Assembly: GCA_964601865.1 (NCBI GenBank)
Contig: CAZRPI010000001.1
Coordinates: forward strand, 4,625 to 68,624
Origin: an uncultured Pelobacter sp.
GTDB taxonomy: Bacteria > Desulfobacterota > Desulfuromonadia > Geobacterales > Pseudopelobacteraceae
Direction: 5' to 3'
DNA length: 64,000 nucleotides
A program made the position numbers and the translations under genes. Positions 9,756-49,127 of the stretch are shown one piece after another (the first letter of the stretch is position 1; every line of letters begins with the position of its first letter). The notes below the pieces were generated by a model that saw only the letters and a list, made by a program, of their open reading frames with translations, searched no databases and had not been told where the DNA came from.

Positions 9756-9856
9756 ACTGTCTACCCCGTCCAGCCAAGCGGCAACCACCAGGAGAACGGC
9801 TTCAAAAAAAACGGGCGGCATCCGACGAAAGGAAACTGCCCGTTGCCCTTATGCCA

Positions 9857-11155: not shown

Positions 11156-11196
11156 TCAATGCTTCCTCTGTCAATAACCCTCTTTAGCGATCACGC

Positions 11197-11225
11197 TTGT
11201 TTACTTCCCATTGCTAAGATATATT
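11197..11225 (+). promoter_or_regulatory. possible sigma-70-like promoter TTGTTT-N17-TATATT
   Basis: Motif spacing was counted by hand. It lies upstream of the histidine kinase gene. Confidence 0.2.
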
Positions 11226-11266
11226 GCGGAATATCCGTTTTGATCAGCCAATGAAACAGGGTAATC

Positions 11267-12718: not shown

Positions 12719-12736
12719 GAGACCGAGGCGCATCAC

Positions 12737-18628: not shown

Positions 18629-18662
18629 TGCGGCAAACAACCCGTTGCGCTGGAGAAAAATA

Positions 18663-23051: not shown

Positions 23052-24099
23052 CAAAGTCGTTGTAATCACCGGAGGCACCGGCTCCCTGGGAAAGGTCCTG
23101 ACCCGCCGCCTGCTGTCCGGCACGGTCGGCACTCCCCGGAAGATCATCATTTTTTCACGGGACGAGGCCAAACAGCATTACATGCGGCTGGAATACCAGC
23201 AGAAGAAAAATGTTACGGACGAGGTTATCTACCACAACTTTGCCCAGCTGCTGGAATTTCGAATCGGTGATGTCCGCAACTACGCATCCGTGGCGTCGGT
23301 CCTCAGGCGGGCCGATATCGTGGTGAACGCCGCCGCCCTGAAACAGGTGCCATCTTGCGAGTATTTCCCGTATGAGGCGGTCATGACCAATGTGATGGGT
23401 GCGGAAAACATCGTGCGCTGCATACGGGAAAACGGACTGCCGGTGCAGACGGTGGTCGGGGTATCCACGGACAAGGCGTGCAAACCGGTCAACGTCATGG
23501 GGATGACCAAGGCCCTGCAGGAGAGGGTTTTCATCGCGGCCAATCTGCACCTGCCGGACACGCGCTTCATCTGTGTCCGCTACGGCAATGTCCTGGCATC
23601 GCGGGGGTCCGTAATTCCCCTGTTCCATGAGCAGATAAAAAACGGCGGTCCGGTCACCGTCACCACCGAGGATATGACCAGGTTTCTGCTACCGCTGGAA
23701 AGGGCCGTCGATACCATCATTGCCGCACTTGAAAGCGCCAATCCGGGAGAGACGTACGTGCCGAAGGTGCCCGCATCCCGCATGCTCGACGTTGCCAGGG
23801 CGCTCATCGGCGTCCGCCCGATTGACACGGTCATAACCGGCATCAGACCCGGAGAGAAGGTGCATGAGAGCATGGTCTCCTTCGAGGAGGGGTGGCGGAC
23901 CTTCGACCGGGGCGACTACTACGCCATCAAACCGATGCTGCCCGAACTGGTGAGGGACGAAGCGGAGGGGACGCCCCTCAACCGGGAGTACAGTTCCAGC
24001 GATTCACTCCTCTCCCCGGACGAGACCCGCGCCCTGCTGGAGCGGTACGGCCTGATGATCGGCCAGGAGATCGTGGAGGAGGGGGAATTCCTGCGATGA
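23035..24099 (+). CDS. UDP-GlcNAc 4,6-dehydratase/5(3)-epimerase of the CapE/FnlA/WbjB/WbvB type
   Basis: Contains VVVITGGTGSLGK..., IFSRDEAKQ and STDKACKPVNVMGMTKA. Met occupies the usual Tyr position (S-M-K triad), as known for CapE-type enzymes. Confidence 0.85.
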   Translation: MTPFDDKVVVITGGTGSLGKVLTRRLLSGTVGTPRKIIIFSRDEAKQHYMRLEYQQKKNVTDEVIYHNFAQLLEFRIGDVRNYASVASVLRRADIVVNAAALKQVPSCEYFPYEAVMTNVMGAENIVRCIRENGLPVQTVVGVSTDKACKPVNVMGMTKALQERVFIAANLHLPDTRFICVRYGNVLASRGSVIPLFHEQIKNGGPVTVTTEDMTRFLLPLERAVDTIIAALESANPGETYVPKVPASRMLDVARALIGVRPIDTVITGIRPGEKVHESMVSFEEGWRTFDRGDYYAIKPMLPELVRDEAEGTPLNREYSSSDSLLSPDETRALLERYGLMIGQEIVEEGEFLR

Positions 24100-25226
24100 A
24101 GGTAATCACCGTCGTTGGCACCCGCCCTGAAATAATAAAGCTCTCCCGGGTGATATCCGAGCTTGACCGGCACACCGAGCACATCCTGGTTCATACCGGC
24201 CAGAACTTCGACTACGAGCTGAACGAGATTTTCTTCCGGCAGCTCCAGGTCCGCAGACCCGATTATTTCCTGGGTGTCGCCGGAAAAACCGTTGCCGAAA
24301 CCATCGGCAACATCATTGCCCGTTCCGACGAAGTCTTTGCCAGGGAAGAACCGGATGCCATGCTGCTGCTGGGTGACACCAACAGTTCGCTCTCCGTGAT
24401 CCCCGCCAAACGGCGCAAGATTCCCATTTTTCACATGGAAGCCGGAAACCGCTGTTTCGACCTGAGGGTCCCCGAAGAGATCAACCGCAAGATCGTCGAC
24501 CACACAAGCGACATCAACCTGGTCTTTTCCGAACACGCCAGGCGCTATCTGATCGCGGAGGGAATACGCCCGGAAACCATCATCAAGACAGGCTCTCCGA
24601 TGCGTGAGGTGCTGGAGTATTACCTCCCGTCAATTGAGCGATCCCCCATACTGGAAGAGCTGCGACTCGAACCCGGCGGTTTTTTCGTCATCAGCGCGCA
24701 CCGCGAGGAAAACGTCGACAGCGAGCAGAACCTTTCGGACCTGCTGGCCTCCATTGACGCCCTGGCGGAGCATTATGGCCTACCGCTGATCGTCTCCACC
24801 CACCCCCGCACGAGAAAACGTCTCGACGAACGCGGGCTGGGCGCCGCCAACAAGCTGGTTAGCTTCCTCAAGCCGCTCGGATTCCTCGATTACGTCAAGC
24901 TGGAACTCAACGCGCGCTGTATCGTATCCGACAGCGGTACGATCACCGAAGAGGCTTCCATACTCGGCCTGCCGGCGGTCACCATCCGGCAGGCCCATGA
25001 ACGGCCGGAGGGAATGGACGAGGCCACCCTGATCATGTGCGGACTGAAGCCGGAAAGGGTACTGGAGGCGGTGGCAACGGTTGTCGCACATGCCGCGGGC
25101 GGCGGACGTCCTTTCAGAATGGCGCCTGATTACGAGGCGGACAACGTATCAAAAAAAGTTATGCGGATTATCATGAGTTATACCGATTATATAAACCGGA
25201 CGGTGTGGCGGAGGAATATGGCATAA
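24096..25226 (+). CDS. UDP-N-acetylglucosamine-type 2-epimerase, non-hydrolysing (FnlC/WbjD/WbvD-like)
   Basis: Begins MKVITVVGTRPEIIKLSRV...HTGQNFDYELNEIFF...GDTNSSLS...IPIFHMEAGNRCFD.RVPEEINRKIVDH. ATGA overlap with the upstream gene. Confidence 0.9.
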   Translation: MKVITVVGTRPEIIKLSRVISELDRHTEHILVHTGQNFDYELNEIFFRQLQVRRPDYFLGVAGKTVAETIGNIIARSDEVFAREEPDAMLLLGDTNSSLSVIPAKRRKIPIFHMEAGNRCFDLRVPEEINRKIVDHTSDINLVFSEHARRYLIAEGIRPETIIKTGSPMREVLEYYLPSIERSPILEELRLEPGGFFVISAHREENVDSEQNLSDLLASIDALAEHYGLPLIVSTHPRTRKRLDERGLGAANKLVSFLKPLGFLDYVKLELNARCIVSDSGTITEEASILGLPAVTIRQAHERPEGMDEATLIMCGLKPERVLEAVATVVAHAAGGGRPFRMAPDYEADNVSKKVMRIIMSYTDYINRTVWRRNMA

Positions 25227-26131
25227 TGAGCAATCTCAACATCAGACAGCAACTACCACCCATAACGCCCAAACCCGACCATAACTATGTGGCTTTTTTC
25301 CTCAGCCTTGCCTGCAACCTCAGATGCAACTACTGCATAAATCTGCACGACCATCTTTCCCGACCGGAACAGGCAAGACGCAACTCCATGTCCGCAGACG
25401 ACTGGATTACCGCGGCAAACCGCCTGTTATTACGCGCCGACCTGCCCCTCACGCTGCAGGGGGGCGAGCCGACCTTGCACCAGGGGTTCTACCGGATCGT
25501 CAATGAGGTCAGGCCTGAGATCAAAATGGACCTCATGACCAACCTGATGTTCGATGTTGATCGCTTCATCGCCAATGTCCCCACTTGGCGATTCACCCGG
25601 GATGCCCCTTACGCCGCCATCCGTGTCAGCTACCATCCGGGCCAGAACAACATCGACGACCTGATTGCAAAAACGCGGAAACTGGAAGACGCCGGATTCA
25701 GGATCGGACTATACGGCATCGAACACCCTGATCCCGAAATCCTGCGTCACGTCAGGGAAACTCAGGAACGCTGCCTCTCGCTTGGACTTGATTTCAGGAC
25801 AAAAGAGTACCTCGGAGAGCACTCGGGAAGGATGTACGGGACCTTCAAATATCCGGACTGCGTTAACAACTCCGAACTGAAGCGATGTCAGTGCCGGACC
25901 ACGGAGATCATTGCCGATCCGGCCGGATACGTTTACAAATGCCACGCCGATCTCTACAAAGGCCGGACACCCATCGCCCACATCCTGGACGACGCTTTTT
26001 CAGAAGAAACGATCGATGAATTCAGGGAATGTTCTTCCTACGGTGACTGCAATCCCTGTGATGTCAAGGTAAAGACCAACCGTTTCCAGATATTCGGACA
26101 TACCAGCGTGGAGATTCGCGACATTCAATGA
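25226..26131 (+). CDS. radical SAM protein (CNLRCNYC)
   Basis: CxxxCxxC at residues ~30-37, GGEPTL and a Cys-rich C-terminus (CQC...C...CSSYGDCNPC). TAATG overlap with the upstream gene. Confidence 0.8.
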   Translation: MSNLNIRQQLPPITPKPDHNYVAFFLSLACNLRCNYCINLHDHLSRPEQARRNSMSADDWITAANRLLLRADLPLTLQGGEPTLHQGFYRIVNEVRPEIKMDLMTNLMFDVDRFIANVPTWRFTRDAPYAAIRVSYHPGQNNIDDLIAKTRKLEDAGFRIGLYGIEHPDPEILRHVRETQERCLSLGLDFRTKEYLGEHSGRMYGTFKYPDCVNNSELKRCQCRTTEIIADPAGYVYKCHADLYKGRTPIAHILDDAFSEETIDEFRECSSYGDCNPCDVKVKTNRFQIFGHTSVEIRDIQ

Positions 26132-27195
26132 GAGCCTATAACTTTGACGGCCACAAACTGATCTACCATCCCGGGCGGGTTCATGAATTCCTGTCCCAGG
26201 GCGATTGTTTTCCGCTCTATATGGAAATCAGTCCCGTGGGCAGATGCAATCACCGATGCCTGTTCTGCGCCTATGACTTCATTGGATACCCGAATCGAAA
26301 GCTGGAAACCGACCTGATGCGCAAACTGTTGGAAGAGCTTGCAGCCACCGGTCTCAAAAGTGTCCTCTTCGCCGGGGAGGGTGAACCACTCCTGCACCCT
26401 GACCTGCCACACCTCGTGCAACATGCAAAAAGCAACGGAATAGATGTCGGCATCTTCACGAACGGACAGCTTCTGACCCCGGAAAAAGCGGAACGGATCA
26501 TTCCTTTCCTGACGTTCCTGCGCTTCAGCTTCAATGGCGGCACACGGGAAGTGTACGCCCGCGTCCATCAGGTTGACCCGAAAGCATACGATACCGTACT
26601 CGCGGCTCTTCACCAGGCAGTTGCCATAAAACATAAACATGGCGTGGCTACCACCATCGGCGTACAATTCGTAGTCATACCGGAAAACCTGTCGTCCCTC
26701 GTTGAAGCCGCGGCCGTGGTAAAATCGGCGGGGGCTGATTATTTTGCCATCAAACCTTTTGTGCATCAGAGTGACCGGCAAGGTTACCGGATGGATAAAC
26801 CACTCGACGCAGAACTTCTCGATGCCTGTCTGGCTGAAGTTGAAACGCTGAATAGCAAGAACTTCAAGGTCATGGCTCGAAGATCCGCCTTTTCCGAATA
26901 CGGTATCCGCCACTATTCCCACTGTTTCGGCACCTCGTTCATATCGGTAATCAATTCCGGCGGCGATGTTGCCTGCTGTCTCCCCTACTGGGATAACCCC
27001 GAATTCGTTTTCGGCAACATCCATGAGCAGTCATTTCGTGAGATCTGGCTGGGAGAACGGCGCAAAACCGTCAAAGCGCTCCTGGAGAAACGTCTCAACG
27101 TGCAGGATTGCCCCCCCAACTGCCGCCCCAATGCGATCAACGATTTTCTGTATGAGCTGAAATATCCGACCCTTGAGCACATAAACTTTATTTAA
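26128..27195 (+). CDS. radical SAM protein, paralogue group A (CNHRCLFC; C-terminus ...HINFI)
   Basis: Contains DGHKLIYHP...GRCNHRCLFCAY..., GEGEPLLHP, FTNG and C-terminal CPPNCRPNAINDFLYELKYPTLEHINFI. ATGA overlap with the upstream gene. Confidence 0.85.
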   Translation: MRAYNFDGHKLIYHPGRVHEFLSQGDCFPLYMEISPVGRCNHRCLFCAYDFIGYPNRKLETDLMRKLLEELAATGLKSVLFAGEGEPLLHPDLPHLVQHAKSNGIDVGIFTNGQLLTPEKAERIIPFLTFLRFSFNGGTREVYARVHQVDPKAYDTVLAALHQAVAIKHKHGVATTIGVQFVVIPENLSSLVEAAAVVKSAGADYFAIKPFVHQSDRQGYRMDKPLDAELLDACLAEVETLNSKNFKVMARRSAFSEYGIRHYSHCFGTSFISVINSGGDVACCLPYWDNPEFVFGNIHEQSFREIWLGERRKTVKALLEKRLNVQDCPPNCRPNAINDFLYELKYPTLEHINFI

Positions 27196-27205
27196 GGATA
27201 CGACG

Positions 27206-28159
27206 ATGCAGACAAAGATACTGATCATTAAGCTGGGTTATTCCGAAACGCTAGACCCGGAAATCGGCAAAGTCCCGAGCCTTGGTGATGTGTTGCGCAC
27301 AACACCCATTCTCTGGGCTCTGCGCGAAAAGTACCCTGACGCCCATATCAGCTGGCTGGTCTCGGAGCATGCCGAGCCGTTGCTGTATCGCAACAGCCAG
27401 ATTGACCGCCTTCTGGTCTGGGACAGCTTTGTCCCGTTTCAGTTGATGAAGGAAAAATTTGATGTACTGATAAACCTGGAAAAAATACCGGGCCTCTGCG
27501 CCCTGAGTGACATGATCGACGCCTGGGTCAAGTACGGTTTCCGCTTCGACTCTCTGTCCGGCAGCTACCACGCCTATGAAAAGGGGCTCGACTTCATAAG
27601 TTATATTGAAGGAAAGCATTCGGACAAGGCCAAAGGTTACTGGCAACAGGTGCTCATTGAAATGCTCGGCATTCCATGGAAGGGACAGGAGTATATCATC
27701 GGATACAAACCGGTGAGCACCGAAATCCATGACATCGGCCTCAACTTCGAAGTGGGCTCGAAATGGCCGGTCAAGGGGATGCCGATGGATCTCTGGCAGC
27801 GGCTGGAACAGCAACTGACTTCTCTCGGCTACAGCGTATCCTGGCAGGAGGGCCGCAAGAACCTCTTTGAATACATGGACTGGATCAATTCCTGCCGCCT
27901 GATAATATCCAATGACAGCCTGGGCCTGCACCTGGCCTTTGGCTTCCATAAAAAGGTGATCGGCCTGTTCGGCCCGACTGATCCAAGCGAGGTCTATTTC
28001 TACACCGGTGGCAAGCTGCTGCGCTCGCCATGCCAGTGCCCGGCCATGCCCTGCTTTGACGTCAAATGCCGCACCGGCCTGATGTGCATGTCGCACTTTG
28101 ATCTTGGCAAAATCATCACAGCCGTTGCGGAAATACGGGGAGAATCAAACACACCATGA
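27206..28159 (+). CDS. glycosyltransferase family 9 (heptosyltransferase-like)
   Basis: Contains KILIIKLGYSETLDPE...LGDVLRTTPILWALREKYPDAHISWLV and C-terminal ISNDSLGLHLA....VIGLFGPTDP. Confidence 0.85.
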   Translation: MQTKILIIKLGYSETLDPEIGKVPSLGDVLRTTPILWALREKYPDAHISWLVSEHAEPLLYRNSQIDRLLVWDSFVPFQLMKEKFDVLINLEKIPGLCALSDMIDAWVKYGFRFDSLSGSYHAYEKGLDFISYIEGKHSDKAKGYWQQVLIEMLGIPWKGQEYIIGYKPVSTEIHDIGLNFEVGSKWPVKGMPMDLWQRLEQQLTSLGYSVSWQEGRKNLFEYMDWINSCRLIISNDSLGLHLAFGFHKKVIGLFGPTDPSEVYFYTGGKLLRSPCQCPAMPCFDVKCRTGLMCMSHFDLGKIITAVAEIRGESNTP

Positions 28160-28938
28160 ACACACGAGAAACCGCGCTCCGCATCCGGCGCACCATAATC
28201 GAGATGGCCAATCGTTCCAAAAGCCCGCATGTCGGCTCCAGCCTCTCCTGCTCCGATATCATGGCGGTACTGTACGACGGCATCCTCAGACTGGAGCCAT
28301 GGGACGAGCGCGACATCTTCATCCTGAGCAAGGGGCACGCGGCCATGTCGCTGTACAGCACTCTGCACGCCAAAGGACTCCTGACGGCAGAGGATATCGA
28401 AGGTTACTACCTGGATAATGGCACCTTACCGGCACATCTTGATCGTCGTCCAGAAAAGGGGATAGAGGTGTCCGCAGGATCGCTGGGACACGGATTCAAC
28501 ATGGGTCTAGGCATGGCCTACGCATTCAAAAAGCAGAAGAGCTTTCGAAAAGTATTTGCGGTTATTGGCGACGGTGAAGCACAAGAGGGCTCCATCTGGG
28601 AAGGAGCCCTGTTCGCAGGCAGGTTCGGGTTGGAAAACTTCACCGCAATCATGGATAACAACAACCTTCAGGGATACGGCCGGCCAAGCGAAATCTGCGC
28701 CTTTGAACCGATGAGGGACAAGTGGATCTCGTTCGGATGGCATGCCATTGAAGTCGATGGACATGACCACGATGAGTTGCGCAACGCCCTACGGGCGGAA
28801 TCGCGCGGAAAACCAAAGATCCTGATTGCCCGCACCATCAAAGGAAAGGGAGTCTCTTTCATGGAAGACCAGCTGATCTGGCATTACTACATTGTCACCG
28901 ACGAACACAAACGGCAAGCTTTGGATGAGCTGTCATGA
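28156..28938 (+). CDS. transketolase, N-terminal (ThDP-binding) subunit
   Basis: Contains HVGSSLSCSDI..., LSKGHAA, GSLGHGFNMGLGMA and GDGEAQEGSIWEGA (ThDP motif GDG...E). 260 aa split form. Confidence 0.9.
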   Translation: MNTRETALRIRRTIIEMANRSKSPHVGSSLSCSDIMAVLYDGILRLEPWDERDIFILSKGHAAMSLYSTLHAKGLLTAEDIEGYYLDNGTLPAHLDRRPEKGIEVSAGSLGHGFNMGLGMAYAFKKQKSFRKVFAVIGDGEAQEGSIWEGALFAGRFGLENFTAIMDNNNLQGYGRPSEICAFEPMRDKWISFGWHAIEVDGHDHDELRNALRAESRGKPKILIARTIKGKGVSFMEDQLIWHYYIVTDEHKRQALDELS

Positions 28939-29855
28939 GGAACTCCTTCATCAATACCATTCTCGATGCCTGCAGACAACGGGAGGACATCTTTGTCATC
29001 AGCGGCGACGCCGGCCTGGGTGTATTTGACACCTTCAAGGAGGAATACCCTGACCGTTTCCTCAACCTGGGAGCCGCCGAACAGAACATGATCAGTTTTG
29101 CCGCCGGGATGTCCATGACCGGCTACAAGGTGCTTGTTTACAACATCATACCTTTTGTCCTTTACCGCTGCTACGAGCAGGTGCGTAACGATATCTGTTA
29201 TCAGGACCTGCCGATTATTCTGGCCGGCATCGGCAGTGGACTGACCTATTCACCCCAGGGAATGACCCACTACTCCATAGAAGATCTGAGCCTCGCCCGT
29301 ACACTCCCGAACCTGACCGTCTTGTCCCCAATTGACCCTGTTGAGGCAAGAGTGGCAGCCAATTATGCCCTATCCGCAGCCGCACCGGTATATGTCAGGC
29401 TTGCCAAGCGTGGCGAACCGGATATCCACACGACACAACAGCTTGATATAAGCGTGCCGCAACAACTGGTCACGGGCGATATTCCGGTCGCCCTTCTCTG
29501 TCATGGTTCCATTGGGGAGGAGGTTCTGCAAGCGGCCCGGATACTGTCCGAAGATGGCATCAGGCCCTTCGTGTTTTCGGTGCCAATGGTACAGCCACTC
29601 AATCGTGACACTTTACTCAGTTGCCTGAAAGGGATGCGGTCAGTGGTTTCGGTTGAAGAGCATTATCATTCCTGCGGCCTGGGCGCGGCCGTGAGGGAAA
29701 GTATCATGGACTCCTCTCTATCCTGCTCTCTCACCACCTTGGGATTACCATCCCGTTTCATCCATGAAGTCCACGACACGGCAGGAATGAGAAAACTGTT
29801 CGGGATTGATGCCGATTCGATTGCTTCTACTGTCAGATCGCAGTTGAGAGGTTGA
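28935..29855 (+). CDS. transketolase, C-terminal (pyrimidine-binding) subunit
   Basis: Contains GDAGLGVFDTFKEEYPDRFLNLGAAEQNMISFAAGM... and HYSIEDLSL.RTLPNLTVLSP.D. ATGA overlap with the N-terminal subunit. Confidence 0.9.
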   Translation: MRNSFINTILDACRQREDIFVISGDAGLGVFDTFKEEYPDRFLNLGAAEQNMISFAAGMSMTGYKVLVYNIIPFVLYRCYEQVRNDICYQDLPIILAGIGSGLTYSPQGMTHYSIEDLSLARTLPNLTVLSPIDPVEARVAANYALSAAAPVYVRLAKRGEPDIHTTQQLDISVPQQLVTGDIPVALLCHGSIGEEVLQAARILSEDGIRPFVFSVPMVQPLNRDTLLSCLKGMRSVVSVEEHYHSCGLGAAVRESIMDSSLSCSLTTLGLPSRFIHEVHDTAGMRKLFGIDADSIASTVRSQLRG

Positions 29856-29857
29856 AC

Positions 29858-30520
29858 ATGGGAAAATTAAGAAATTATTTTACGCCTCTTCATACCAGTA
29901 CGAAACGTGACTATCTCTCACGCATGTGTGATGCCAAAGTCGAGTGCATGCGAGTTGCCAAAAGATACGGGTCTGAGTTCTGGGATGGTGAGCGGCGGTA
30001 CGGATATGGAGGCTTCAAGTATGACGGCAGATGGAAACCGGTCGCCGAACGTTTAATCGAAGATTACGGACTGGCCGGGAACTGCTCGATCCTTGACATA
30101 GGTTGCGGCAAGGGATTCCTGTTGTATGAACTCCATCAGTTACTACCGGAAGCACGTATTGCCGGGTTTGATATTTCAGAGTATGCCATCAACAACGCGA
30201 AGGATGAGATCCGTCACAACATCTTCCTGCACCGGGCTCAGGATCCGCTTCCCTATAAAGATCATGAGTTCGACCTGGCTATCTCGCTTACCACCCTCCA
30301 CAATCTGCACCTGCCAGACCTGAAGGCCGCCCTGATGGAAATGGAACGGGTCGGCAGGCAGAAATATCTGGTTGTGGAGGGATACCGGAATGAGGAAGAG
30401 CTGTTTAACCTGCAGTGCTGGGCGCTGACCTGCGCCGCCTTCTTCACACCAGAGGAATGGATGTGGCTGTTTGGCCAGTTTGGTTACAGCGGGGACTACG
30501 AGTTTGTGTATTTCGACTGA
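29858..30520 (+). CDS. class I SAM-dependent methyltransferase
   Basis: Motif I is ILDIGCGKGFLL. Also GFDISEYAINNAK and DLAISLTTLHNL. Confidence 0.85.
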   Translation: MGKLRNYFTPLHTSTKRDYLSRMCDAKVECMRVAKRYGSEFWDGERRYGYGGFKYDGRWKPVAERLIEDYGLAGNCSILDIGCGKGFLLYELHQLLPEARIAGFDISEYAINNAKDEIRHNIFLHRAQDPLPYKDHEFDLAISLTTLHNLHLPDLKAALMEMERVGRQKYLVVEGYRNEEELFNLQCWALTCAAFFTPEEWMWLFGQFGYSGDYEFVYFD

Positions 30521-30538
30521 TCGTTCCAGGAGAGAGTA

Positions 30539-31609
30539 ATGGGGTTGCTCTACACCCGCATGAAAATATTCCACTTCAACGCCAAGCTTGATTCACTCCA
30601 GCCAAGTTCCGGGGGTATCCTTCCGCCGCTCAACGTACGCATCAAACCGACCAATGCCTGCAACCATAACTGCTGGTATTGCGCCTACCGTGCGGAAAAT
30701 CTGCAACTTGGACAGGATATGAACCAGAAGGATTCCATACCGCGGGACAAGATGCTGGAGATCATCGATGATCTGATGGCAATGGAAGTGAAGGCGGTTA
30801 CCTTCAGCGGCGGGGGCGACCCGTTCTGTTATCCGCACCTGTTGGAAACGGTGCAAAAACTGGCCGCAACTCCGATCAAATTTGCCGCGCTTACTAATGG
30901 TTCACGCCTGACCGGCGAAGTCGCGGAAGTTTTTGCCAAACACGCCACCTGGTTGCGAGTCTCCATGGACGGCTGGGACAACGCCAGCTACCGTGAGTAC
31001 CGCGGATGTTCCGATGGGGAGTTCACCAACATCATCCGCAATATGGAACAGTTCAAAAAAATTGGTGGGAAGTGTTATCTGGGAGTCTGTATCGTTGTTG
31101 ATAACAATAACTACGAGCATATCTACGATTTGATCCAACTCCTGCACGCAACCGGAGTCAACAGCGTCAAGGTCTCACCCTGCATCGTCAGCAACAGTTG
31201 TGACGACAATTATAACTACCACGTTCCGCTTTTTGATTCGGTAAAAGAGCAGACCCTGCGGGCACAGCAGGAGTTCACCGGGGAAGGCTTTGAACTGTAT
31301 GATGCCTACCATTACCAACTGGGAACATTTGCCAAAGATTATTCATGGTGTCCCTACCTTCAGATTGTCCCGGTCATCGGCGCCGACCTGAATATCTACT
31401 CTTGCCACGACAAGGCATACAACCTTGCGGAAGGATTGCTGGGTTCAATCACAGACACACGGTTCCGTGATTTCTGGTTCTCCGACAAGAGGCGGTTTTA
31501 CCGAATTAATCCGAGACGAGACTGCAACCATCATTGTGTTGTTGACAGCAATAATCGTATGGTTCTGGAATATCTGAATGTTGACGAAAACCATCGGGAG
31601 TTTTTGTAA
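30539..31609 (+). CDS. radical SAM protein, paralogue group A-like (CNHNCWYC; C-terminus ...HREFL)
   Basis: Contains KPTNACNHNCWYCAY, FSGGGDPF, LTNG and a C-terminal CNHHCVVDSNNRMVLEYLNVDENHREFL. AGGAGAG lies upstream of the ATG. Confidence 0.85.
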   Translation: MGLLYTRMKIFHFNAKLDSLQPSSGGILPPLNVRIKPTNACNHNCWYCAYRAENLQLGQDMNQKDSIPRDKMLEIIDDLMAMEVKAVTFSGGGDPFCYPHLLETVQKLAATPIKFAALTNGSRLTGEVAEVFAKHATWLRVSMDGWDNASYREYRGCSDGEFTNIIRNMEQFKKIGGKCYLGVCIVVDNNNYEHIYDLIQLLHATGVNSVKVSPCIVSNSCDDNYNYHVPLFDSVKEQTLRAQQEFTGEGFELYDAYHYQLGTFAKDYSWCPYLQIVPVIGADLNIYSCHDKAYNLAEGLLGSITDTRFRDFWFSDKRRFYRINPRRDCNHHCVVDSNNRMVLEYLNVDENHREFL

Positions 31610-31612
31610 TCA

Positions 31613-32491
31613 ATGAGTATGCCCCCCCAAAAAGTGCTTGTCTTCGGAAGTACCGGCAAACTTGGATCAGCTCTAACAGCTGCATTCGCAACGGCCTCGT
31701 ACATGGTCATTCCGCTTAATCGCTCCGAGTGCGATGTCAATGACCATGCTCAGGTGCATTGCAAAGTCAAACAAATACGGCCCGACATTGTTATCAACGC
31801 CATAGCCTTCAACGGCATCGACGCCTGCGAAGCAAGTCCGCAACAGGCACTGGCAATCAACACCCTTTTCCCCAAACTGCTGGCCGAACTCTCGCAAATA
31901 TATTCTTTTTTACTCGTACACATCAGCAGTGACGCGGTCTTCAGCGGCACACAGGGGGGGTATTTCAAGGAAACGAGTATCGCAGCCCCCATCAATTTGT
32001 ACGGCTTTACCAAGTTTGGCGGGGATTGTTTCGTGAGCGCCATTGCCAAACGCCATTACATTACCCGGATTTCGGTGCAGTTCGGGCCTACCCCCGGAAA
32101 GGCCCAGTTTATCGAGAAAATGCTGGAACGGATCCGGCATGGCGCAGATCATCTGCAAGTATCCGACGATATTATTGCTTCTCCCAGCTACAGCAGGGAT
32201 GTCGCTGAACGCATCAGGACCCTTGTTGATGAACGGAGTCCCTTTGGGTTGTACCACATTGCAAATGAGGGGAAGGCTTCACTTTATGAACTGGTGAAGG
32301 AACTTGTTCGAATCATGGAGTGGGGTGTTGTGGTAGTACCGGTTCCCCACAGTACATTCCCATCACAGGGTATCAAAAACACCTATACCCCCATCCGGTC
32401 GGAAAGAATTGCGCCTTTGCGCCCCTGGCGTGATGCATTGATGGCATATTGCCGGGAAGCACTGATAGACAAAGGAAGGATAGATGGCTGA
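31613..32491 (+). CDS. RmlD-family sugar 4-ketoreductase (dTDP-4-dehydrorhamnose reductase-like), second copy
   Basis: Contains VLVFGSTGKLGSAL..., VINAIAFNGID and HISSDAVFSG...YGFTKFGGD. Confidence 0.85.
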   Translation: MSMPPQKVLVFGSTGKLGSALTAAFATASYMVIPLNRSECDVNDHAQVHCKVKQIRPDIVINAIAFNGIDACEASPQQALAINTLFPKLLAELSQIYSFLLVHISSDAVFSGTQGGYFKETSIAAPINLYGFTKFGGDCFVSAIAKRHYITRISVQFGPTPGKAQFIEKMLERIRHGADHLQVSDDIIASPSYSRDVAERIRTLVDERSPFGLYHIANEGKASLYELVKELVRIMEWGVVVVPVPHSTFPSQGIKNTYTPIRSERIAPLRPWRDALMAYCREALIDKGRIDG

Positions 32492-33575
32492 TACAACATA
32501 TCGCATGGATGGACATAAGCTATACTGGCATCTCGATCGGGTCAACGACTGGATGAACGGCAAAAGGATAGCGCCGTTGCATATCGATGTCGGTTTGAGC
32601 AAGGGATGCAACATCAGATGCCATTACTGTTTCGGGGTTGTTCAGGGAAACCGCTACCAGGAAGGCAAAGAGATCTTTTTTGCGCGTGAACCGCTGTTGA
32701 ATTATGTCCGGGAGGCAGGCGAAGTCGGTGTCAGATCCATGGCAATCATAGGCGAAGCCGAACCGCTTCTCAATCCCCACGCATATGAGGCAATCATTGC
32801 CGGCAAGAAATCGGGGGTCGATATGGCGCTCGGCACCAACGGCATCCTGTTCGACACCGGAAATAGCGGGCAGAAGGCGCTGGAGCATCTTACCTGGTTG
32901 CGCTTCAATATCAGCGCAGCCTCGCAACAATCGTATCAGCGCCTTCACAACAGTCCCGACTTCGCTACCCTTTTGGAAAAAATAAGGTTCTGCCTTGACA
33001 CCAAGCGCAAAAACAATCTGCCGGTAACCATCGGATTCCAGATGGTCTTAACGCCACAGGATATAGACGAGGTGTTACCATTGACCCGTCTTGCCAAAGA
33101 ACTGGGAGTGGATTATCTGGAAATCAAACATTGCGGAGACACGGTAAAAAATGACCTGGGCATTTTCAATAAACTCGGCATGTATGATCAGTTCAGGGAA
33201 ATCCTGCTGCGGGCAGAACAGGAATCGACCGATACGTTCAGGGTTATTGTAAAATGGGGCAACATCACTCGCAAAGGGAAACGCGCCTATAACTGCTGTC
33301 TCGGCGCCCCCTTCCTGCTCTATTCCAGCGGTGACGGCAAGCTGTATCCCTGCGGCATGTTCTTTTCCTACCGTGAGCCTGAGTTCTGTCTCGGAGACCT
33401 GAACCGGCAATCATTCAAGTCAATCGTTGAAAGCGATGCGTACTGGAATACCATGAAGAAAATCCAGACTGACATCAGGGTGCATGAAGAATGCTACGCC
33501 AGCTGCAAAACCAATGCGATCAATGAGTTCTTGTACACCCTGATCAATCCTCCGCAACATATCAACTTCATCTAG
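32484..33575 (+). CDS. radical SAM protein, paralogue group A (CNIRCHYC; C-terminus ...HINFI)
   Basis: Contains DGHKLYWHL...KGCNIRCHYCFG..., GEAEPLLNP, GTNG and CYASCKTNAINEFLYTLINPPQHINFI. It is clearly paralogous to 26128-27195. Confidence 0.85.
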   Translation: MADTTYRMDGHKLYWHLDRVNDWMNGKRIAPLHIDVGLSKGCNIRCHYCFGVVQGNRYQEGKEIFFAREPLLNYVREAGEVGVRSMAIIGEAEPLLNPHAYEAIIAGKKSGVDMALGTNGILFDTGNSGQKALEHLTWLRFNISAASQQSYQRLHNSPDFATLLEKIRFCLDTKRKNNLPVTIGFQMVLTPQDIDEVLPLTRLAKELGVDYLEIKHCGDTVKNDLGIFNKLGMYDQFREILLRAEQESTDTFRVIVKWGNITRKGKRAYNCCLGAPFLLYSSGDGKLYPCGMFFSYREPEFCLGDLNRQSFKSIVESDAYWNTMKKIQTDIRVHEECYASCKTNAINEFLYTLINPPQHINFI

Positions 33576-33586: not shown

Positions 33587-34243
33587 ATGGAAGACAAATA
33601 TATCAGCGAGCATATTGAGTACAGGGATGAAGAACGCATCCGCCTGGGAATGATGTCAAGCCATCGCTGGAGGATGGACCCCAAGGTGCTGCTGTTCTCA
33701 ATGGCCCGATATAAATTCATCGCAAAGATGCTGACAGGAAAAAATGAGGTGCTCGAAGTCGGTTGCGGAGACGGCTGGGGGGCCAACATTGTCGTGCGAG
33801 AAGTTGGCTCAATCTTATGCGTAGATATGGACCCGGTCCTGGTCAAAGAATGCGAAGAGTTGAAAACCGACGACCGGATATCCTTTGCCCGGCATGATCT
33901 GCGCAAAGCACCCGTTAAACCTGCGCGCGATGCGGTATATCTGCTTGATGTGCTGGAACATCTGGAAAAAGAGGATGAAGATATTTTTTTGAGAAACATC
34001 GCGGCATCAATAACAGCAGACGGTATCTGCATTGTGGGCATCCCCAGCCTGGAAAGTCAGGAATACGCCTCCAAGCCGAGTCGCGCCACCCATGTTAACT
34101 GCAAAAGCGGCAATGACCTGAAACAGACCCTTGAGAAATATTTCAGGAATGTCTTCCTGTTCAGCATGAACGATGAAGTTGTGCATACCGGCTTTACCAA
34201 GATGGCCCACTACCTGCTGTGTCTCTGCGTCGGAGTGCGCTAG
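33587..34243 (+). CDS. class I SAM-dependent methyltransferase
   Basis: Contains VLEVGCGDGWGANI..., AVYLLDVLEHL and GICIVGIP. Confidence 0.8.
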   Translation: MEDKYISEHIEYRDEERIRLGMMSSHRWRMDPKVLLFSMARYKFIAKMLTGKNEVLEVGCGDGWGANIVVREVGSILCVDMDPVLVKECEELKTDDRISFARHDLRKAPVKPARDAVYLLDVLEHLEKEDEDIFLRNIAASITADGICIVGIPSLESQEYASKPSRATHVNCKSGNDLKQTLEKYFRNVFLFSMNDEVVHTGFTKMAHYLLCLCVGVR

Positions 34244-34247
34244 GCCG

Positions 34248-34658
34248 ATGCACTGCGTCGCCCTGATCGTTCTGTATGATGACCGGCAGGACGTTTTGCT
34301 TCAGCACCGGACTGATGATGCTCACCTTTTCCCCGGCCACTGGGCTTTTTTCGGCGGAAGCTGTGAATCCGATGAAACACCGCTCGAAGCGGTTATCCGG
34401 GAAACGGAGGAGGAACTCTGCTACCGCCTGACTTCTCCCCGACTTGTCATGGAACAGCCGTTTTCAGTAAATGGTCTTGAATGCTTGATGTACCTGTATG
34501 TTGAGCAGCACCACGGCGATAAGAGCATGTTGCGATTGTGCGAGGGACAGGGGTGGGGATGGTTTGGAGCTGGCGAAACCGAAAAACTCCTGATGACGGA
34601 GCATGATCGTTCCGCACTGCGTGTCGCACGAAACTTTATATCCGGACAAACACAATGA
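34248..34658 (+). CDS. Nudix hydrolase
   Basis: The Nudix box is GGSCESDETPLEAVIRETEEELCY. The start ATG 34248 lies just after the upstream stop. Confidence 0.85.
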   Translation: MHCVALIVLYDDRQDVLLQHRTDDAHLFPGHWAFFGGSCESDETPLEAVIRETEEELCYRLTSPRLVMEQPFSVNGLECLMYLYVEQHHGDKSMLRLCEGQGWGWFGAGETEKLLMTEHDRSALRVARNFISGQTQ

Positions 34659-36127
34659 ACATCCACCCCCTATCAATGGATCAGCAGCAGTCTTTACGCG
34701 GCCAGCCCAAGCGGCTTCTGCTCGCCTATCCCAATATGCGCTGGCATAAAGAGGACAGCGTAACGCTCTGGAATCTTGATCCAACAGCACTCTGCCTGTT
34801 GGCTGCAACGGTCAGAGACCTGGTGGAGATCAAGATCCTTGACGCCCAGTTTCACAACCTGGACAGGGACACGTTCAAGCGACAGATTGCCGACTATCAA
34901 CCGGATTACGTCGGCCTGTCACTGCTGACCAGTGAGTATGAAGAAGCTTTGTACGGAGCTGCCCGGCTCGTTAAGGAAGTCAATCCTGATATCACGGTGA
35001 TTGCCGGTGGCGTCCATGTTACGACCATGCCTGACCATGTCATGGAGACGTGCGAGGCCATCGATTACTGCGTCATTGGCGAGGGGGAACATGTTCTGCG
35101 GGAACTGATACGCTATCTTCAGGGAACAGACGCTTTACCGAAGTCAGGCCTTGCCTATCGCAGCGGCAATGTAATCATACAGAAGCAGGCAATAGTTGAC
35201 AACCTGTCGGAACTTCCCTGGCCAGCCTACGATCTGGTCGATTTTTCCGCCTACATTCAAAAACCGCAACGGGGCTTCACCTCCAATCAACCGCCTGCAT
35301 ACCCCTATGTGCGGATGGTAACAACCCGTGGCTGCCCCTTCGGATGCACTTTCTGCCAGGTTGAAACCATAGCGGGGCGTCGGGTGAGAACCCGTGACCC
35401 GGTGGACGTCGTCAATGAGCTGGAATTCCTGAAAGAACGTTACGGCATCCGCTCCATCGTATTTGATGAAGACAACATCCTGTTGGGAGAGAACGACTAT
35501 GCACGTCGGCTTTTCCGCGAAATGAGCGACCGAAAGCTGAACCTTCCCTGGATCGCGTCGGCGTTTGCGCTCTTTCTGATAACCGATGACCTGCTTGCCC
35601 TGATGAAAGAATCGGGATGCGTCGGTATCAACGTCGCCATCGAATCGGGCAATGAGCGTGTCTTGAAGGAAATTATCCACAAACCGATAAAAAATCTTCA
35701 AGCCATACCGGACATAATCGCCAGGGTTCAGGCGCAGGGAATTTACTGCATCGCCAATTTCATAGTCGGATTTCCCGGCGAAACCTGGAATGAAATTCGT
35801 GAGACAATTGCCTTTGCGGAACAATGTGGCGCGGATTATGTCAAGATTTACGCGGCAGTGCCACTGTACAGGACCAAGCTCTATTATCTGGCAAAGGAAA
35901 AGGGATTGCTGCTCTGCAACGATGAAATCCCCAAGGTTGATTGGCGCTACGGCCAGATTACTTCCGATGAGTGGACGGCAAAGGATATCAGCATCCTCAG
36001 GGTTTACGAGTGGGATCGAATCAACTTTGCGCCCCATAAGATAAAACGTTTGATTGAAATCACCGGAGCGACCGAAGAAGAGTTAAACGCTGTGCGGAAG
36101 AACACAAGGGATAACCTAACTTGGTGA
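34655..36127 (+). CDS. B12-binding-domain radical SAM enzyme (class B, methyltransferase-like)
   Basis: N-terminal Rossmann-like LLLAYPN...GLSLLTSEY...VIAGGVHVT, then TTRGCPFGCTFCQV. 490 aa. ATGA overlap with the Nudix gene. Confidence 0.88.
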   Translation: MNIHPLSMDQQQSLRGQPKRLLLAYPNMRWHKEDSVTLWNLDPTALCLLAATVRDLVEIKILDAQFHNLDRDTFKRQIADYQPDYVGLSLLTSEYEEALYGAARLVKEVNPDITVIAGGVHVTTMPDHVMETCEAIDYCVIGEGEHVLRELIRYLQGTDALPKSGLAYRSGNVIIQKQAIVDNLSELPWPAYDLVDFSAYIQKPQRGFTSNQPPAYPYVRMVTTRGCPFGCTFCQVETIAGRRVRTRDPVDVVNELEFLKERYGIRSIVFDEDNILLGENDYARRLFREMSDRKLNLPWIASAFALFLITDDLLALMKESGCVGINVAIESGNERVLKEIIHKPIKNLQAIPDIIARVQAQGIYCIANFIVGFPGETWNEIRETIAFAEQCGADYVKIYAAVPLYRTKLYYLAKEKGLLLCNDEIPKVDWRYGQITSDEWTAKDISILRVYEWDRINFAPHKIKRLIEITGATEEELNAVRKNTRDNLTW

Positions 36128-36162
36128 TTTAACGGCACATCACACTTCAACAAGGTAATGTA

Positions 36163-37326
36163 ATGACCACACAGAATAGAGATTTCCTTACCCCGGCTCA
36201 TCCACTTTCTTCGCTAAACTTCATGTTTACGGAAAAATGCAACCTTCGGTGTGTATATTGTCCCAAATACTCAGCAACAGATACAAGTGGCCATATTTCG
36301 CAGACACTCCTTGAATATATAATTGAATACATAAAGAGCAATCATATCAAATCGGCAGGTGTTGGCTTCTATGGGGAGACCTTTTGTTTTCCAGGATGGG
36401 AGCGATATGCCGGAGAACTGGTCAATGCTGGTGTGGACATGTCAATATGCTCAAACTGGAATCACAAGCTGTCTGACAACCAAATAGGGGTGTTGAGCAG
36501 ATTCAAGCTTATCCAGTTCAGCATCGACACTACAAATCCTGACTTACTACGCACAATTCGCCCCCCAGCAGACCTTAAAACCATATTATTCAACATGCAT
36601 CTAATACGCAGCAGGACTATTCTTGATCGTGTACAGCACCCGATTTTCATGTGGTGCAGCGTATTAAGTCACAAGATAATACCCTACTTATCGGACTTTG
36701 TTGCCATGGCAATTTCCAATGGCGTGAAGCATATAAATTTCAACGAACTGGAGTATTACGAAGATTCCAGCCATGAACTCAAAAGTGTTTTTGACCTTGA
36801 AAACATGGAATTTGTTGTCGCTGCAGACGAGATTCTCAAAATGGATTTGCTGGCCAAAAGTTATGGCATTGAAATCACCTATGCGTTCAACTCATTCCTG
36901 GATGTTATCAGGACAAGGAAGCAGCAAATATTATCCGGCAGCAATGACAGCATGTCCAACACTGTCTGCAGACTACCGTTACAAGGGATTCAAGGCATTT
37001 CAAGCCACTTGACATTACCCTCAACATCTTTACCACCTCATGGCAATAATACGCATACCAGATTATGTTTGCAGCCTTGGACTACGGCTTACATCCTTGC
37101 CAATGGCACGGTCTGCAGCTGTTGCGTAAGGGGTGAGAGCATGGGGAGAATATCCGCTGATACAAATCTTGATGATATTTTGAACAACAATAAATATAGA
37201 GAGCTCAGATGGCGTCTGTTAACGGGGAATATTGTCGATAACGCCTGCCTGGCCTGTCCTGTCACGCCAATCGTTGAAAAATCAATCCTGCATGAGTCTT
37301 TGCTGCAATCCCTTATTCGCACATGA
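36163..37326 (+). CDS. radical SAM / SPASM-domain protein
   Basis: Contains FTEKCNLRCVYCPK and a C-terminal SPASM-like region CLQPWTTAYILANGTVCSCCVRG...NACLACP. Confidence 0.85.
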   Translation: MTTQNRDFLTPAHPLSSLNFMFTEKCNLRCVYCPKYSATDTSGHISQTLLEYIIEYIKSNHIKSAGVGFYGETFCFPGWERYAGELVNAGVDMSICSNWNHKLSDNQIGVLSRFKLIQFSIDTTNPDLLRTIRPPADLKTILFNMHLIRSRTILDRVQHPIFMWCSVLSHKIIPYLSDFVAMAISNGVKHINFNELEYYEDSSHELKSVFDLENMEFVVAADEILKMDLLAKSYGIEITYAFNSFLDVIRTRKQQILSGSNDSMSNTVCRLPLQGIQGISSHLTLPSTSLPPHGNNTHTRLCLQPWTTAYILANGTVCSCCVRGESMGRISADTNLDDILNNNKYRELRWRLLTGNIVDNACLACPVTPIVEKSILHESLLQSLIRT

Positions 37327-37347
37327 CTCCGAAAGAGGCCACCAATA

Positions 37348-38346: not shown

Positions 38347-38353
38347 TAACGCC

Positions 38354-39451: not shown

Positions 39452-39615
39452 TATTTAGAAACATATTCGCTGGCAGCAAGCTGTTGCCGGACTTTTGGCC
39501 GGTCTTTCATCACAGTATTTTTCACAATCATCGGATATAAAACACTTGAGCGGCAGGGTCAAGCCAGCCATATCAATGTCATTTCAACAACCAAAGAATT
39601 CAAACACAATATCTT

Positions 39616-40989: not shown

Positions 40990-41040
40990 AAACAAGAAAC
41001 CACCAGATTTAACAGCAACTCCGCACAGGGAACTACTGCA

Positions 41041-49051: not shown

Positions 49052-49127
49052 AATGGTTTGATTCGCCGATGGGACTGATATACATTTCTTAGAAACACTT
49101 TTCGCACGTTCATTCTAGGAGACCGAT

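Follow-up and report, generated by a model that had tools for sequence, protein, structure and literature searches.

This report concerns two adjacent genes, TK-N and TK-C, which encode the two chains of a split transketolase (TK) and lie in a stretch of DNA of 64,000 nucleotides from an uncultured Pelobacter sp. (GenBank assembly GCA_964601865.1, contig CAZRPI010000001.1, positions 4,625 to 68,624 of the forward strand). This whole stretch is called the window below, and positions are counted from its first letter. The DNA stems from a biofilm metagenome. Both open reading frames (ORFs) are intact, and they are found inside a single plus-strand glycan island of about 40 kb (14.3-54 kb), which also encodes glycosyltransferases, short-chain dehydrogenase/reductase (SDR) enzymes, an aminotransferase and methyltransferases. 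A first-pass annotation of this DNA had described a split TK with the thiamine diphosphate (ThDP) motif GDGEAQEG, coupled by ATGA overlaps to a preceding GT9 gene and between its own subunits, and all of this can be read in the ORFs and in the DNA. The motif occupies TK-N residues 138-145. Positions 28154-28161 read CCATGAAC, with the TGA of GT9 overlapped by the ATG of TK-N (ATGA at 28156-28159), and positions 28933-28940 read TCATGAGG, with the TGA of TK-N overlapped by the ATG of TK-C (ATGA at 28935-28938); the same 4-nt overlap of the two TK genes is present in 44 of 77 related loci. The GT9, methyltransferase, radical-SAM and RmlD neighbours named by that annotation agree with Pfam, and the radical-SAM genes are more numerous than it had stated. 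Six such ORFs, all with a CxxxCxxC motif, are located at 25.2-37.3 kb (starts at 25205, 26128, 30539, 32484, 34655 and 36163), and all but the one at 30539 are additional.

The window pair has the features that define the TK superfamily, namely a pyrophosphate-binding (PP) domain with the GDG(X)25-30N motif, a pyrimidine-binding (Pyr) domain with the activating Glu, and a TK C-terminal domain. On other Pfam ThDP families TK-N scores much more weakly (E1_dh 1.4e-6, TPP_enzyme_C 1e-3) than on Transketolase_N (Table 1). Its best PDB match is 6YAK (1.1e-60), a chain of the split-chain TK of Carboxydothermus hydrogenoformans, and the best match of TK-C is the partner chain 6YAJ (3.1e-38); in both cases human TK comes next. 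The C. hydrogenoformans enzyme is split in the same way as the window pair, which shows the two-chain architecture of the 6YAK/6YAJ type, with adjacent genes divided at the PP/Pyr boundary. This runs counter to the premise, made in the first-pass annotation, that a housekeeping TK is always a single protein of about 660 aa. Because housekeeping split TKs exist, the split architecture alone is no evidence of a special role. Common to the window pair and to canonical TKs, 6YAK/6YAJ included, are the fold, the GDG...N motif, four histidines, the cofactor Glu and one phosphate-site Arg. The TK-N motifs are different, however (GSLGHG for GSLGQG, LQGYGR for LQIDG and WHYY for WHG), and so is the setting, as canonical TKs belong to a pentose-phosphate context and the window pair to a glycan/radical-SAM context.

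We mapped both subunits onto human TK, using the 4KXU numbering, which agrees with the known H37, H77, H110, D155, E366, H416, D424 and R474. The catalytic residues are kept. The donor and catalytic histidines H25, H61, H94 and H243 of TK-N, which correspond to human H37, H77, H110 and H258, are invariant across 17 aligned homologues. The catalytic histidines and the ThDP/Mg motif (TK-N G138-D139-G140...N169, aligned with human D155...N185) are kept in 75 of the 75 family members examined. The proton-wire glutamates E144 and E149 of TK-N match human E160 and E165, and the cofactor-activating glutamate of TK-C, E49 (human E366), is invariant in 75 of 75 members.

The substrate pocket is rebuilt. 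The phosphate-binding Ser345 and His416 of the human enzyme are replaced by glycines (TK-C G29 and G100, respectively), each of them in all 75 members, and Asp424 (D477 in yeast) is replaced by Q108 in the window. Over the 75 members this last position is occupied by Q in 40, A in 20, M in 8, G in 6 and by another residue otherwise, but never by Asp. G29, G100, P107, H112 and Y113 of TK-C are invariant in this alignment, while TK-N carries the family signature SPHVG, GSLGHG, NNLQGYGR and WHYY. The roles of R359, R528, H469, S386 and D477 in the yeast and E. coli enzymes have been established by mutagenesis and crystallography. Ser, His and Asp are kept at the three sites in 6YAJ, human TK and E. 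coli TktA, whereas the canonical residue set of the 6YAJ type is absent from the window TK-C; the pair lacks both the complete substrate-phosphate site (two Arg, His and Ser) and the Asp for the acceptor C2 hydroxyl that characterize enzymes of EC 2.2.1.1. Two basic residues of the phosphate site are retained, R2 (Arg) and K158 (a Lys/Arg position), where the human site has R318 and R474. Retention of Arg and Lys would be expected if binding of a phosphate or diphosphate continues in an enlarged pocket, and together with the two Gly it may fit a larger anionic group, for example a nucleotide diphosphate.

A comparison with the phosphate-binding residues of classical TK had been proposed in the first-pass annotation as a check of its idea that the pair is a non-housekeeping enzyme of a sugar pathway, and the outcome, with His and Ser changed to Gly and Asp lost in all members, speaks for that idea, as does the occurrence of the family in a small set of species and in glycan/radical-SAM cassettes (see below). 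The comparative support is good, and the sequences argue for a true TK-family protein which is specialised and non-housekeeping; unlike the split, the rebuilt pocket does speak for a special role.

A scan of one genome per species detected the TK pair in 128 of 185,579 species genomes. Its distribution is patchy and extends over many phyla, mostly of anaerobes; carriers include Geobacterales, Nitrospirota, Brocadiales and other Planctomycetota, Omnitrophota and Sulfuricellaceae, and also Campylobacterota, Deferribacteres, Elusimicrobiota and Chloroflexota. The nearest relative is a metagenome-assembled genome of Geobacter (81% identity), and hundreds of TK-N homologues with 65-85% identity are present in the protein database (Citrifermentans, Desulfobacteraceae, Nitrospirota, Brocadiaceae). 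Gene context was assessed by mapping the proteins of the window and of a Brocadiaceae locus onto 80 species-genome loci, and neighbouring ORFs were also clustered de novo. Counts out of 81 refer to these loci plus the window, and counts out of 71 to the loci with enough upstream sequence.

Both in the window and in the 80 genome loci, the TK pair is embedded in nucleotide-sugar/glycan gene clusters. In 62 of 71 loci the gene immediately upstream of the pair is of the rSAM_B type and encodes a radical-SAM/SPASM-type protein. Two alternative modules follow this core on its downstream side: module 1, consisting of the methyltransferase MT220 and rSAM_C, is found alone in 39 of 81 loci, and module 2, an RmlD-like reductase with rSAM_D, alone in 21, while both occur together in only three loci, among them the window and Geobacter sp. 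OR-1. The MT220 family is present in 42 loci, mostly paired with rSAM_C, and rSAM_D never appears in the loci without the RmlD-like gene. The upstream side is occupied by GT9 in 38 loci, mostly together with rSAM_A, and by an ADP-heptose operon in 23 of 71, and no locus has both. Family-level searches with hidden Markov models (HMMs) agree with this: the heptose operon is absent from all 42 loci found with the GT9-family HMM, and GT9 from all 20 loci found with the HldE HMM, while 34 of the 39 loci with the rSAM_A family have GT9 and none has the heptose operon. The locus types are interleaved on the TK-C tree, and therefore the swaps must have occurred repeatedly.

The heptose operon is composed of genes for a GSU2086-family protein (369 bits, cut-off 250), an HldC-like adenylyltransferase, an HldA-like kinase and GmhA, and has the same arrangement as the hldE-GSU2086-gmhA operon of Geobacter sulfurreducens (PMC5585712). 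Less constant members of the cassette are NUDIX homologues (42-54% identity; in nine loci, each of them with module 2, and frequently placed between rSAM_B and TK-N), the MT218 methyltransferase family (10 loci) and the B12-binding radical-SAM family (20 loci). RmlD-like reductases, WbuC-family cupins, UDP-galactopyranose mutase homologues, 4,6-dehydratase-type SDR enzymes, DegT aminotransferases (18 of 80 loci), small GT2 proteins and B12-radical-SAM enzymes also recur; all of these are nucleotide-sugar enzymes, and the first five groups act at the level of nucleoside diphosphate (NDP) sugars. Five loci of the heptose-operon type encode a protein of about 480-500 aa without a Pfam match. In two Campylobacterota loci that have no rSAM_B, L075 (8249-9706) and L079 (1390-2898), this protein stands directly upstream of TK-N, and it may be a functional replacement of rSAM_B.

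The altered pocket extends far beyond this subfamily. An exhaustive HMMER search with TK-C gave 1,225 cluster representatives (50% identity) at E<=1e-30. The best 150 of these 1,225 begin with MR..., have lengths of about 305-312 aa and show identities of 32-57%; Gly occupies the phosphate-His position in 149 of the 150, and Asp is found at the D477-equivalent position in only four. The TK-C signature of the superfamily is MR..., G-x-G-x-G...G-x-[TS]-H-[HY] without Asp at the D477 position, and that of TK-N is GSLGHG, LQ-x-[YF]-G-[RK] and WHY. Five members sampled from archaea, the candidate phyla radiation (CPR) and a metagenome, 34-38% identical to the window TK-C, carry both subunit signatures, and all five are located in nucleotide-sugar or glycan clusters. 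In four of them, the genes of a glycan cluster encode, in this order, an NTP-transferase, an NDP-sugar 4,6-dehydratase, an SDR, TK-N and TK-C. Their hosts are Nitrosopumilus, Wolfebacteria (CPR), a marine archaeon (with the cluster next to the AglB/STT3 oligosaccharyltransferase) and Methanomassiliicoccales; a DegT aminotransferase belongs to the cluster in two of these four and directly follows TK-C in one. The fifth context comprises the TK, DegT, a Polysacc_synt_2 dehydratase and a transaldolase-like gene. On these sequence comparisons, the family appears to be a large, uncharacterised TK branch of sugar-decoration clusters.

A ThDP enzyme encoded directly behind an enzyme that makes an NDP-4-keto-6-deoxy-sugar is the arrangement known for YerE-type branching enzymes. 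As the superfamily TKs follow NDP-sugar 4,6-dehydratases in this YerE-like layout, the same kind of reaction may, by parsimony, be assumed for the window subfamily, in which a radical-SAM enzyme would stand in place of the NAD-dependent dehydratase and a heptose in place of the hexose. The archaeal loci would imply branched sugars of a new kind in archaeal N-glycans. The RmlD-like reductase of the window was also considered as an orthologue of the SDR adjacent to the superfamily TKs, but this was rejected, as about 21% identity reflects generic SDR similarity.

To our knowledge, ThDP-dependent formation of carbon-carbon (C-C) bonds on nucleotide sugars has so far been described only for enzymes of the YerE and E1 types. 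NDP-4-ketosugars receive a two-carbon branch from YerE/ErwE and from the E1-type enzymes AviB1/B2 and those of aldgarose and kibdelomycin, and the results are branched sugars of lipopolysaccharide (LPS) or antibiotics (PMC12247030). As is proposed here for the window pair, YerE/ErwE and AviB1/B2 are ThDP enzymes within NDP-sugar pathways that make a C-C bond to a sugar ketone. On the other hand, YerE/ErwE belong to the decarboxylase superfamily and AviB1/B2 are E1 alpha/beta proteins, while the window pair, a member of the TK superfamily, has neither architecture. YerE/AviB-type enzymes also decarboxylate pyruvate or other 2-oxo acids, whereas the usual C2 donors of a TK are ketoses or hydroxypyruvate. 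Two-carbon grafting of the YerE/AviB type, which had been suggested earlier for the window pair, is supported in part: the superfamily adjoins NDP-sugar 4,6-dehydratases, as expected for an NDP-ketosugar substrate, but there is no kinship to YerE or AviB1/B2.

Another parallel comes from the miharamycin and amipurimycin clusters, where split-gene TKs were proposed to move a hydroxyacetyl unit to a keto sugar (section 2.3 of a 2025 review, PMC12247030). Knock-outs of these TKs did not reveal the substrate, and a bioinformatic survey listed 13 further split-TK candidates, all from Streptomyces (PMC12247030). What these systems have in common with the window is a split TK in a sugar-tailoring cluster, a preceding enzyme that is proposed to install the keto group and the same proposed chemistry as the one favoured here, with a C2 ketol passed to a sugar carbonyl, the likeness being one by description. 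They differ in that they are actinomycete antibiotic clusters with a nucleoside sugar and an NAD-type oxidoreductase partner, whereas the window family belongs to Gram-negative anaerobes and archaea, where it is found in islands for surface glycans and has a radical-SAM partner and a heptose link. Compared with the 13 Streptomyces sequences, the candidates described here are far more numerous and come from a wider range of phyla; they have a clear signature, and cultured carriers exist, among them Citrifermentans bremense R1 (module 1) and Geobacter sp. OR-1 (both modules). No paper on TKs in flagellin or surface-glycan islands, or on a radical-SAM/TK/heptose cassette, was found in the literature within our reach, from which subscription papers were mostly missing.

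The radical-SAM partner which would prepare the substrate is rSAM_B. rSAM_B, rSAM_C and rSAM_D are paralogues, and their family has 138 members in 76 loci. The closest structures to rSAM_B are BlsE (7VOB, 6e-9), DesII (8HZV, 2.5e-8) and BtrN (4M7T, 7e-6); rSAM_C matches BlsE at 1.7e-6 and rSAM_D matches DesII at 9e-4. The nearest solved relatives of the three proteins are thus sugar-modifying radical-SAM enzymes, a decarboxylase (BlsE), a deaminase/dehydrogenase (DesII) and a dehydrogenase (BtrN), although the similarity is weak throughout. On curated family models the scores of all three are far under the cut-offs, and for rSAM_A only sub-threshold family matches and no PDB relative by sequence were found. 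We propose, from these relationships, that rSAM_B may be the maker of the carbonyl acceptor. None of the enzymes BlsE, DesII, BtrN and AprD4 is known to be coupled to a ThDP enzyme. AprD4 and AprD3 form a pair of diol dehydratase and reductase, and the fixed pairing of rSAM_D with the RmlD-like protein resembles it, which may hint at a similar division of labour.

The interpretation that we favour, with a probability of about one half, is that TK-N/TK-C would be a ThDP carboligase which adds a C2 unit to a carbonyl on a nucleotide-heptose, outside the pentose-phosphate pathway. What the sequences show is the genes themselves, the rebuilt active site, the conservation of the cassette and its surroundings of heptose and NDP-sugar genes; the course of events given next is our inference from them, in each chemical step as well as in the donor, the position attacked and the final acceptor. 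The starting pool would be a nucleotide-activated heptose (ADP-glycero-manno-heptose or a close derivative), supplied in the window organism by the LPS pathway of the cell and in other carriers by the hldE/GSU2086/gmhA operon beside the cassette. rSAM_B would take a hydrogen from the sugar and, acting either as a dehydrogenase (BtrN/DesII-type) or as a diol-dehydratase (AprD4-type), would leave a ketone or an aldehyde on it. The TK might then load a two-carbon ketol on ThDP, as dihydroxyethyl-ThDP, and add it to that carbonyl; the product would be a sugar with a C2 branch or a C2 extension (nine carbons), carrying a new alpha-hydroxy-ketone. As donor, a ketose phosphate or hydroxypyruvate is the most likely, since the donor histidines are conserved. 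Module 2 could carry out keto reduction and deoxygenation, its RmlD-like protein and rSAM_D acting as an AprD3/AprD4-like pair, and module 1 could carry out methylation (MT220) and rearrangement (rSAM_C); the modules would be interchangeable, and the window has both. The finished sugar would be transferred to a surface glycoconjugate, here probably flagellin, possibly by GT9 or by the TPR-GT9 protein encoded beside the flagellin gene.

Several observations weigh against this interpretation. The likeness of rSAM_B to BlsE, DesII and BtrN is weak (1e-6 to 1e-9) and does not discriminate between oxidation, dehydration, epimerisation and decarboxylation. Neither gmhA nor hldE is found within the 64-kb window, so that the heptose link of the window itself is indirect. 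In the family-model scan TK-C scores almost equally on DXS and TK models, and because of this the donor may also be pyruvate, as in DXS. The two basic residues retained at the phosphate site are compatible with a sugar-phosphate substrate too. The favoured model leaves the mutual exclusivity of GT9 with rSAM_A and the heptose operon without explanation; one possibility is that rSAM_A could convert the housekeeping ADP-L,D-heptose pool to the form that the operon makes directly, yet this does not account for GT9. Finally, even in the case of miharamycin the role of the TK is 'still pending' according to the review cited above (PMC12247030).

The main alternative places the TK at an earlier stage, as a builder of sugar-phosphate chains. 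It would make a ketose phosphate that feeds GmhA/HldE and is then isomerised, phosphorylated and nucleotide-activated; the product could be sedoheptulose-7-phosphate (as mere supply), octulose-8-phosphate from hexose-6-phosphate or nonulose-9-phosphate from heptose-7-phosphate. The logic is that of the lincosamide octose, which is started by the transaldolase LmbR, followed by the isomerase LmbN, the kinase LmbP, the phosphatase LmbK and the nucleotidyltransferase LmbO. As in the cassette, a C-C enzyme of the pentose-phosphate type stands there next to GmhA-like and kinase/nucleotidyltransferase genes, and a higher-carbon NDP-sugar results. However, LmbR transfers C3 and a transketolase C2, and heptose genes are absent from over half of the cassette loci. 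Where they are present (23 of 71), the genes for GmhA and the HldA-like and HldC-like proteins are just upstream of rSAM_B and the TK pair, which fits this scheme, and so does the conservation of R2 and K158. Replacement of His and Ser by Gly could extend the channel for a longer sugar phosphate, and loss of the Asp that enforces the D-configuration at the acceptor C2 would permit a manno-configured acceptor.

Nevertheless, we consider such a chain builder rather unlikely, though by no means negligible. In 38 of 71 loci, the window included, the dedicated isomerase, kinase and nucleotidyltransferase that a non-standard ketose phosphate needs are missing, and mere supply of sedoheptulose-7-phosphate would not explain why the active site is rebuilt in every one of the 75 members. 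The constant neighbour is rSAM_B and not gmhA, and the wider superfamily adjoins NDP-hexose 4,6-dehydratases, with no sugar-phosphate enzymes there. This also affects the earlier suggestion of a higher-carbon sugar. The link to heptose, seen in the loci with the ADP-heptose operon, is in its favour, but conversion of pentose to heptose (sedoheptulose-7-phosphate) for the GT9 is disfavoured because the phosphate pocket is altered and because GT9 and gmhA are mutually exclusive.

One could also imagine that the TK breaks a bond on the nucleotide sugar rather than making one. rSAM_B would oxidise the heptose side chain to CH2OH-C(=O)-, and the TK would remove C6-C7 as ThDP-bound glycolaldehyde, with an aldehyde left for tailoring. 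A heptose side chain oxidised at C6 would resemble a ketose donor, the histidines that bind the donor, equivalent to H37 and H258, are conserved, and the UDP-galactopyranose mutase homologues of some loci could free the needed hydroxyl. But the C2 unit would have no obvious acceptor or fate, the dehydratase-linked relatives use 6-deoxy sugars without such a ketol, and no precedent is known for this reaction, which makes ketol cleavage quite improbable in our opinion.

We would give a marginally smaller chance still to a supply of acyl groups, in which a C2 unit from a ketose would end up on an amino sugar as a glycolyl or acetyl substituent, with no C-C bond to the skeleton. Split TKs do feed glycolyl units to carrier proteins in pathways of the quinocarcin/naphthyridinomycin type. 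In favour of such a supply, DegT-type aminotransferase genes are near the pair in 18 of 80 loci and directly behind TK-C in two of five superfamily contexts, and a PseC-like aminotransferase is encoded in the window at 19582-20784. However, oxidation of the ThDP adduct would need a partner, and the cassette has no conserved lipoyl/E2-like protein, carrier protein or acyltransferase.

That an ordinary, split, housekeeping pentose-phosphate TK came to lie in the island by chance seems very improbable: the fold, the ThDP motif and the catalytic residues would suit it, split housekeeping enzymes exist, and tblastn with E. coli TktA matched only TK-N in the 64-kb window and revealed no extra TK gene in the 80 cassette loci, but the three substrate-binding residues kept by the housekeeping split TK are replaced in every member, the pair occurs in only 128 of 185,579 species and always in rSAM/glycan cassettes, and it is translationally coupled to GT9 and methyltransferase genes. 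Salvage of 5-deoxyribose from radical-SAM turnover, with chemistry of the 7-deoxysedoheptulose type, was dropped because distant relatives have the same active site and no radical-SAM neighbours.

If the carboligase interpretation is correct, a nine-carbon product would be a neutral counterpart of the nonulosonic acids made by NeuB, and a transketolase accepting ketones or aldehydes would be of biocatalytic interest as a source of functionalised tertiary alcohols. The close association of the TK with radical-SAM enzymes, and its connection to ADP-heptose, point to new sugars on the flagella, S-layers or LPS of anaerobes such as Geobacter, anammox bacteria, Nitrospirota and Campylobacterota. 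A broader proposal, towards which we lean less than towards the carboligase itself and against which the odds are somewhat tilted, is that the rSAM_B/TK-N/TK-C core might be a new anoxic route to higher-carbon or C2-branched sugars, and that the whole superfamily of split TKs with Gly in place of His, which extends over archaea, CPR bacteria and many other bacteria, might be a major class of nucleotide-sugar C-C ligases without a characterised member; branched sugars of a new kind would then be common in prokaryotic surface glycans.

The features of the window which surround the TK pair are collected in Table 1.

Table 1. TK-N, TK-C and neighbouring features of the window. Values after family names are Pfam E-values.
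Feature	Position	Strand	Description
RmlD-like reductase, PseB/FnlA-like UDP-GlcNAc 4,6-dehydratase and WecB-type non-hydrolysing 2-epimerase	22128-25226		Three genes
rSAM_A	25205..26131	+	308 aa, CNLRCNYC at residue 37; Radical_SAM 1.5e-7; partner of the cassette GT9
rSAM_B	26128..27195	+	355 aa, radical-SAM/SPASM-type; Radical_SAM 2.6e-19, SPASM 1.2e-9
GT9 (divergent, heptosyltransferase-type)	27206..28159	+	317 aa; Glyco_transf_9 2.1e-10; PDB 3TOV 1.1e-10
TK-N	28156-28938	+	260 aa; ThDP (PP-domain) subunit of non-canonical split transketolase; Transketolase_N 2.5e-33
TK-C	28935-29855	+	306 aa; pyrimidine-binding and C-terminal domains; Transket_pyr 4.9e-26, Transketolase_C 1.1e-15
MT220	29852..30520	+	Class-I SAM methyltransferase; Methyltransf_31 1.7e-19; module 1 with rSAM_C
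rSAM_C	30539..31609	+	356 aa; Radical_SAM 6.8e-22; module 1
RmlD-like NDP-ketosugar reductase	31613..32491	+	292 aa; RmlD_sub_bind 5.3e-58; module 2 with rSAM_D
rSAM_D	32484..33575	+	363 aa, radical-SAM/SPASM-type; Radical_SAM 3.2e-10, SPASM 2.1e-6; module 2
MT218	33587..34243	+	Second class-I methyltransferase; Methyltransf_11 6.6e-11; recurrent accessory gene
NUDIX hydrolase	34173..34658	+	Candidate nucleotide-sugar pyrophosphatase; NUDIX 2.5e-15
B12-binding radical-SAM enzyme	34655..36127	+	B12-binding 6.1e-21, Radical_SAM 1.9e-24
TPR and GT41 (O-GlcNAc-transferase-like) protein	56498-58417		Flanks flagellin
TPR and GT9 fusion	58402-61374	-	990 aa; candidate flagellin heptosyl-type transferase

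Some of these assignments need comment. The GT9 protein matches the NCBIfam models of heptosyltransferases I, II and III at 1e-11 to 1e-12, every score being under the cut-off. rSAM_C matches the model of the prokaryotic viperin family at 1.5e-18, also under the cut-off, and the RmlD-like protein reaches 186.5 bits on TIGR01214 (rmlD) and misses the cut-off of 224. MT220 starts with TTG at 29852 or with ATG at 29858, while the true start of the NUDIX gene is probably the ATG at 34248, right behind the MT218 stop codon. The B12-binding radical-SAM enzyme is a probable C-methyltransferase or tailoring enzyme.

Near the end of the island, 26 kb from the TK pair, a flagellin gene is located on the minus strand (55478-56383). 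The protein has 301 aa with a Ser/Thr-rich middle, and its gene is flanked by those of the two TPR glycosyltransferases of Table 1. The first-pass annotation had connected the TK with flagellin; this connection holds as far as proximity goes, but in the 80 other loci the 10 kb on either side of the cassette contain no flagellin gene, and therefore the target glycoconjugate cannot be generalised. A NeuB homologue is not encoded in the window.

Other sugar genes of the island were also noted. In the three-gene group at 22128-25226 the PseB/FnlA-like protein scores 295 and 258 bits, both under the cut-off, and the WecB-type protein 224.5 bits, over the cut-off; this CapE/F/G- or FnlA/B/C-like set suggests, as judged from the family scores, a pathway to a UDP-2-acetamido-2,6-dideoxy-L-hexose in the same island. 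At 18645-20784 an SDR of the 4,6-dehydratase type, which scores 97 bits on the ADP-heptose 6-epimerase model too, is followed by the PseC-like aminotransferase. Homologues of both recur in 18 cassette loci, and in some Campylobacterota loci the SDR homologue immediately precedes rSAM_B and the TK pair. At 42042-53979 there are genes for three multi-domain glycosyltransferases of very large size, 1659 aa (three GT2 domains and GT4), 677 aa and 1267 aa (GT2 domains and TPR), with TPR proteins between them.

Outside these groups, two pairs of overlapping ORFs deserve caution. At 1389-3815 two long ORFs without a Pfam match overlap on opposite strands (764 aa on the plus and 637 aa on the minus strand), and either may not be a gene; the same may be true of a 304-aa ORF without a family match at 9851-10765, which is overlapped by an opposite-strand ORF of 432 aa. 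The G+C content is 0.41-0.44 at 36001-42000 and 0.50-0.60 in the rest of the window. This low-G+C stretch, which covers rSAM_E, a 332-aa ORF without a family match (37348-38346), an FkbM methyltransferase, a TPR protein and a Methyltransf_24 protein, points to a mosaic insert taken up into the island by horizontal transfer. Upstream of the island, at 8212-14134, there are genes for a MotB-like OmpA-domain protein, an Smr protein, a HAMP histidine kinase and a sigma-54 response regulator (FlrBC/FleSR-like), which are consistent with a flagellar regulon context.

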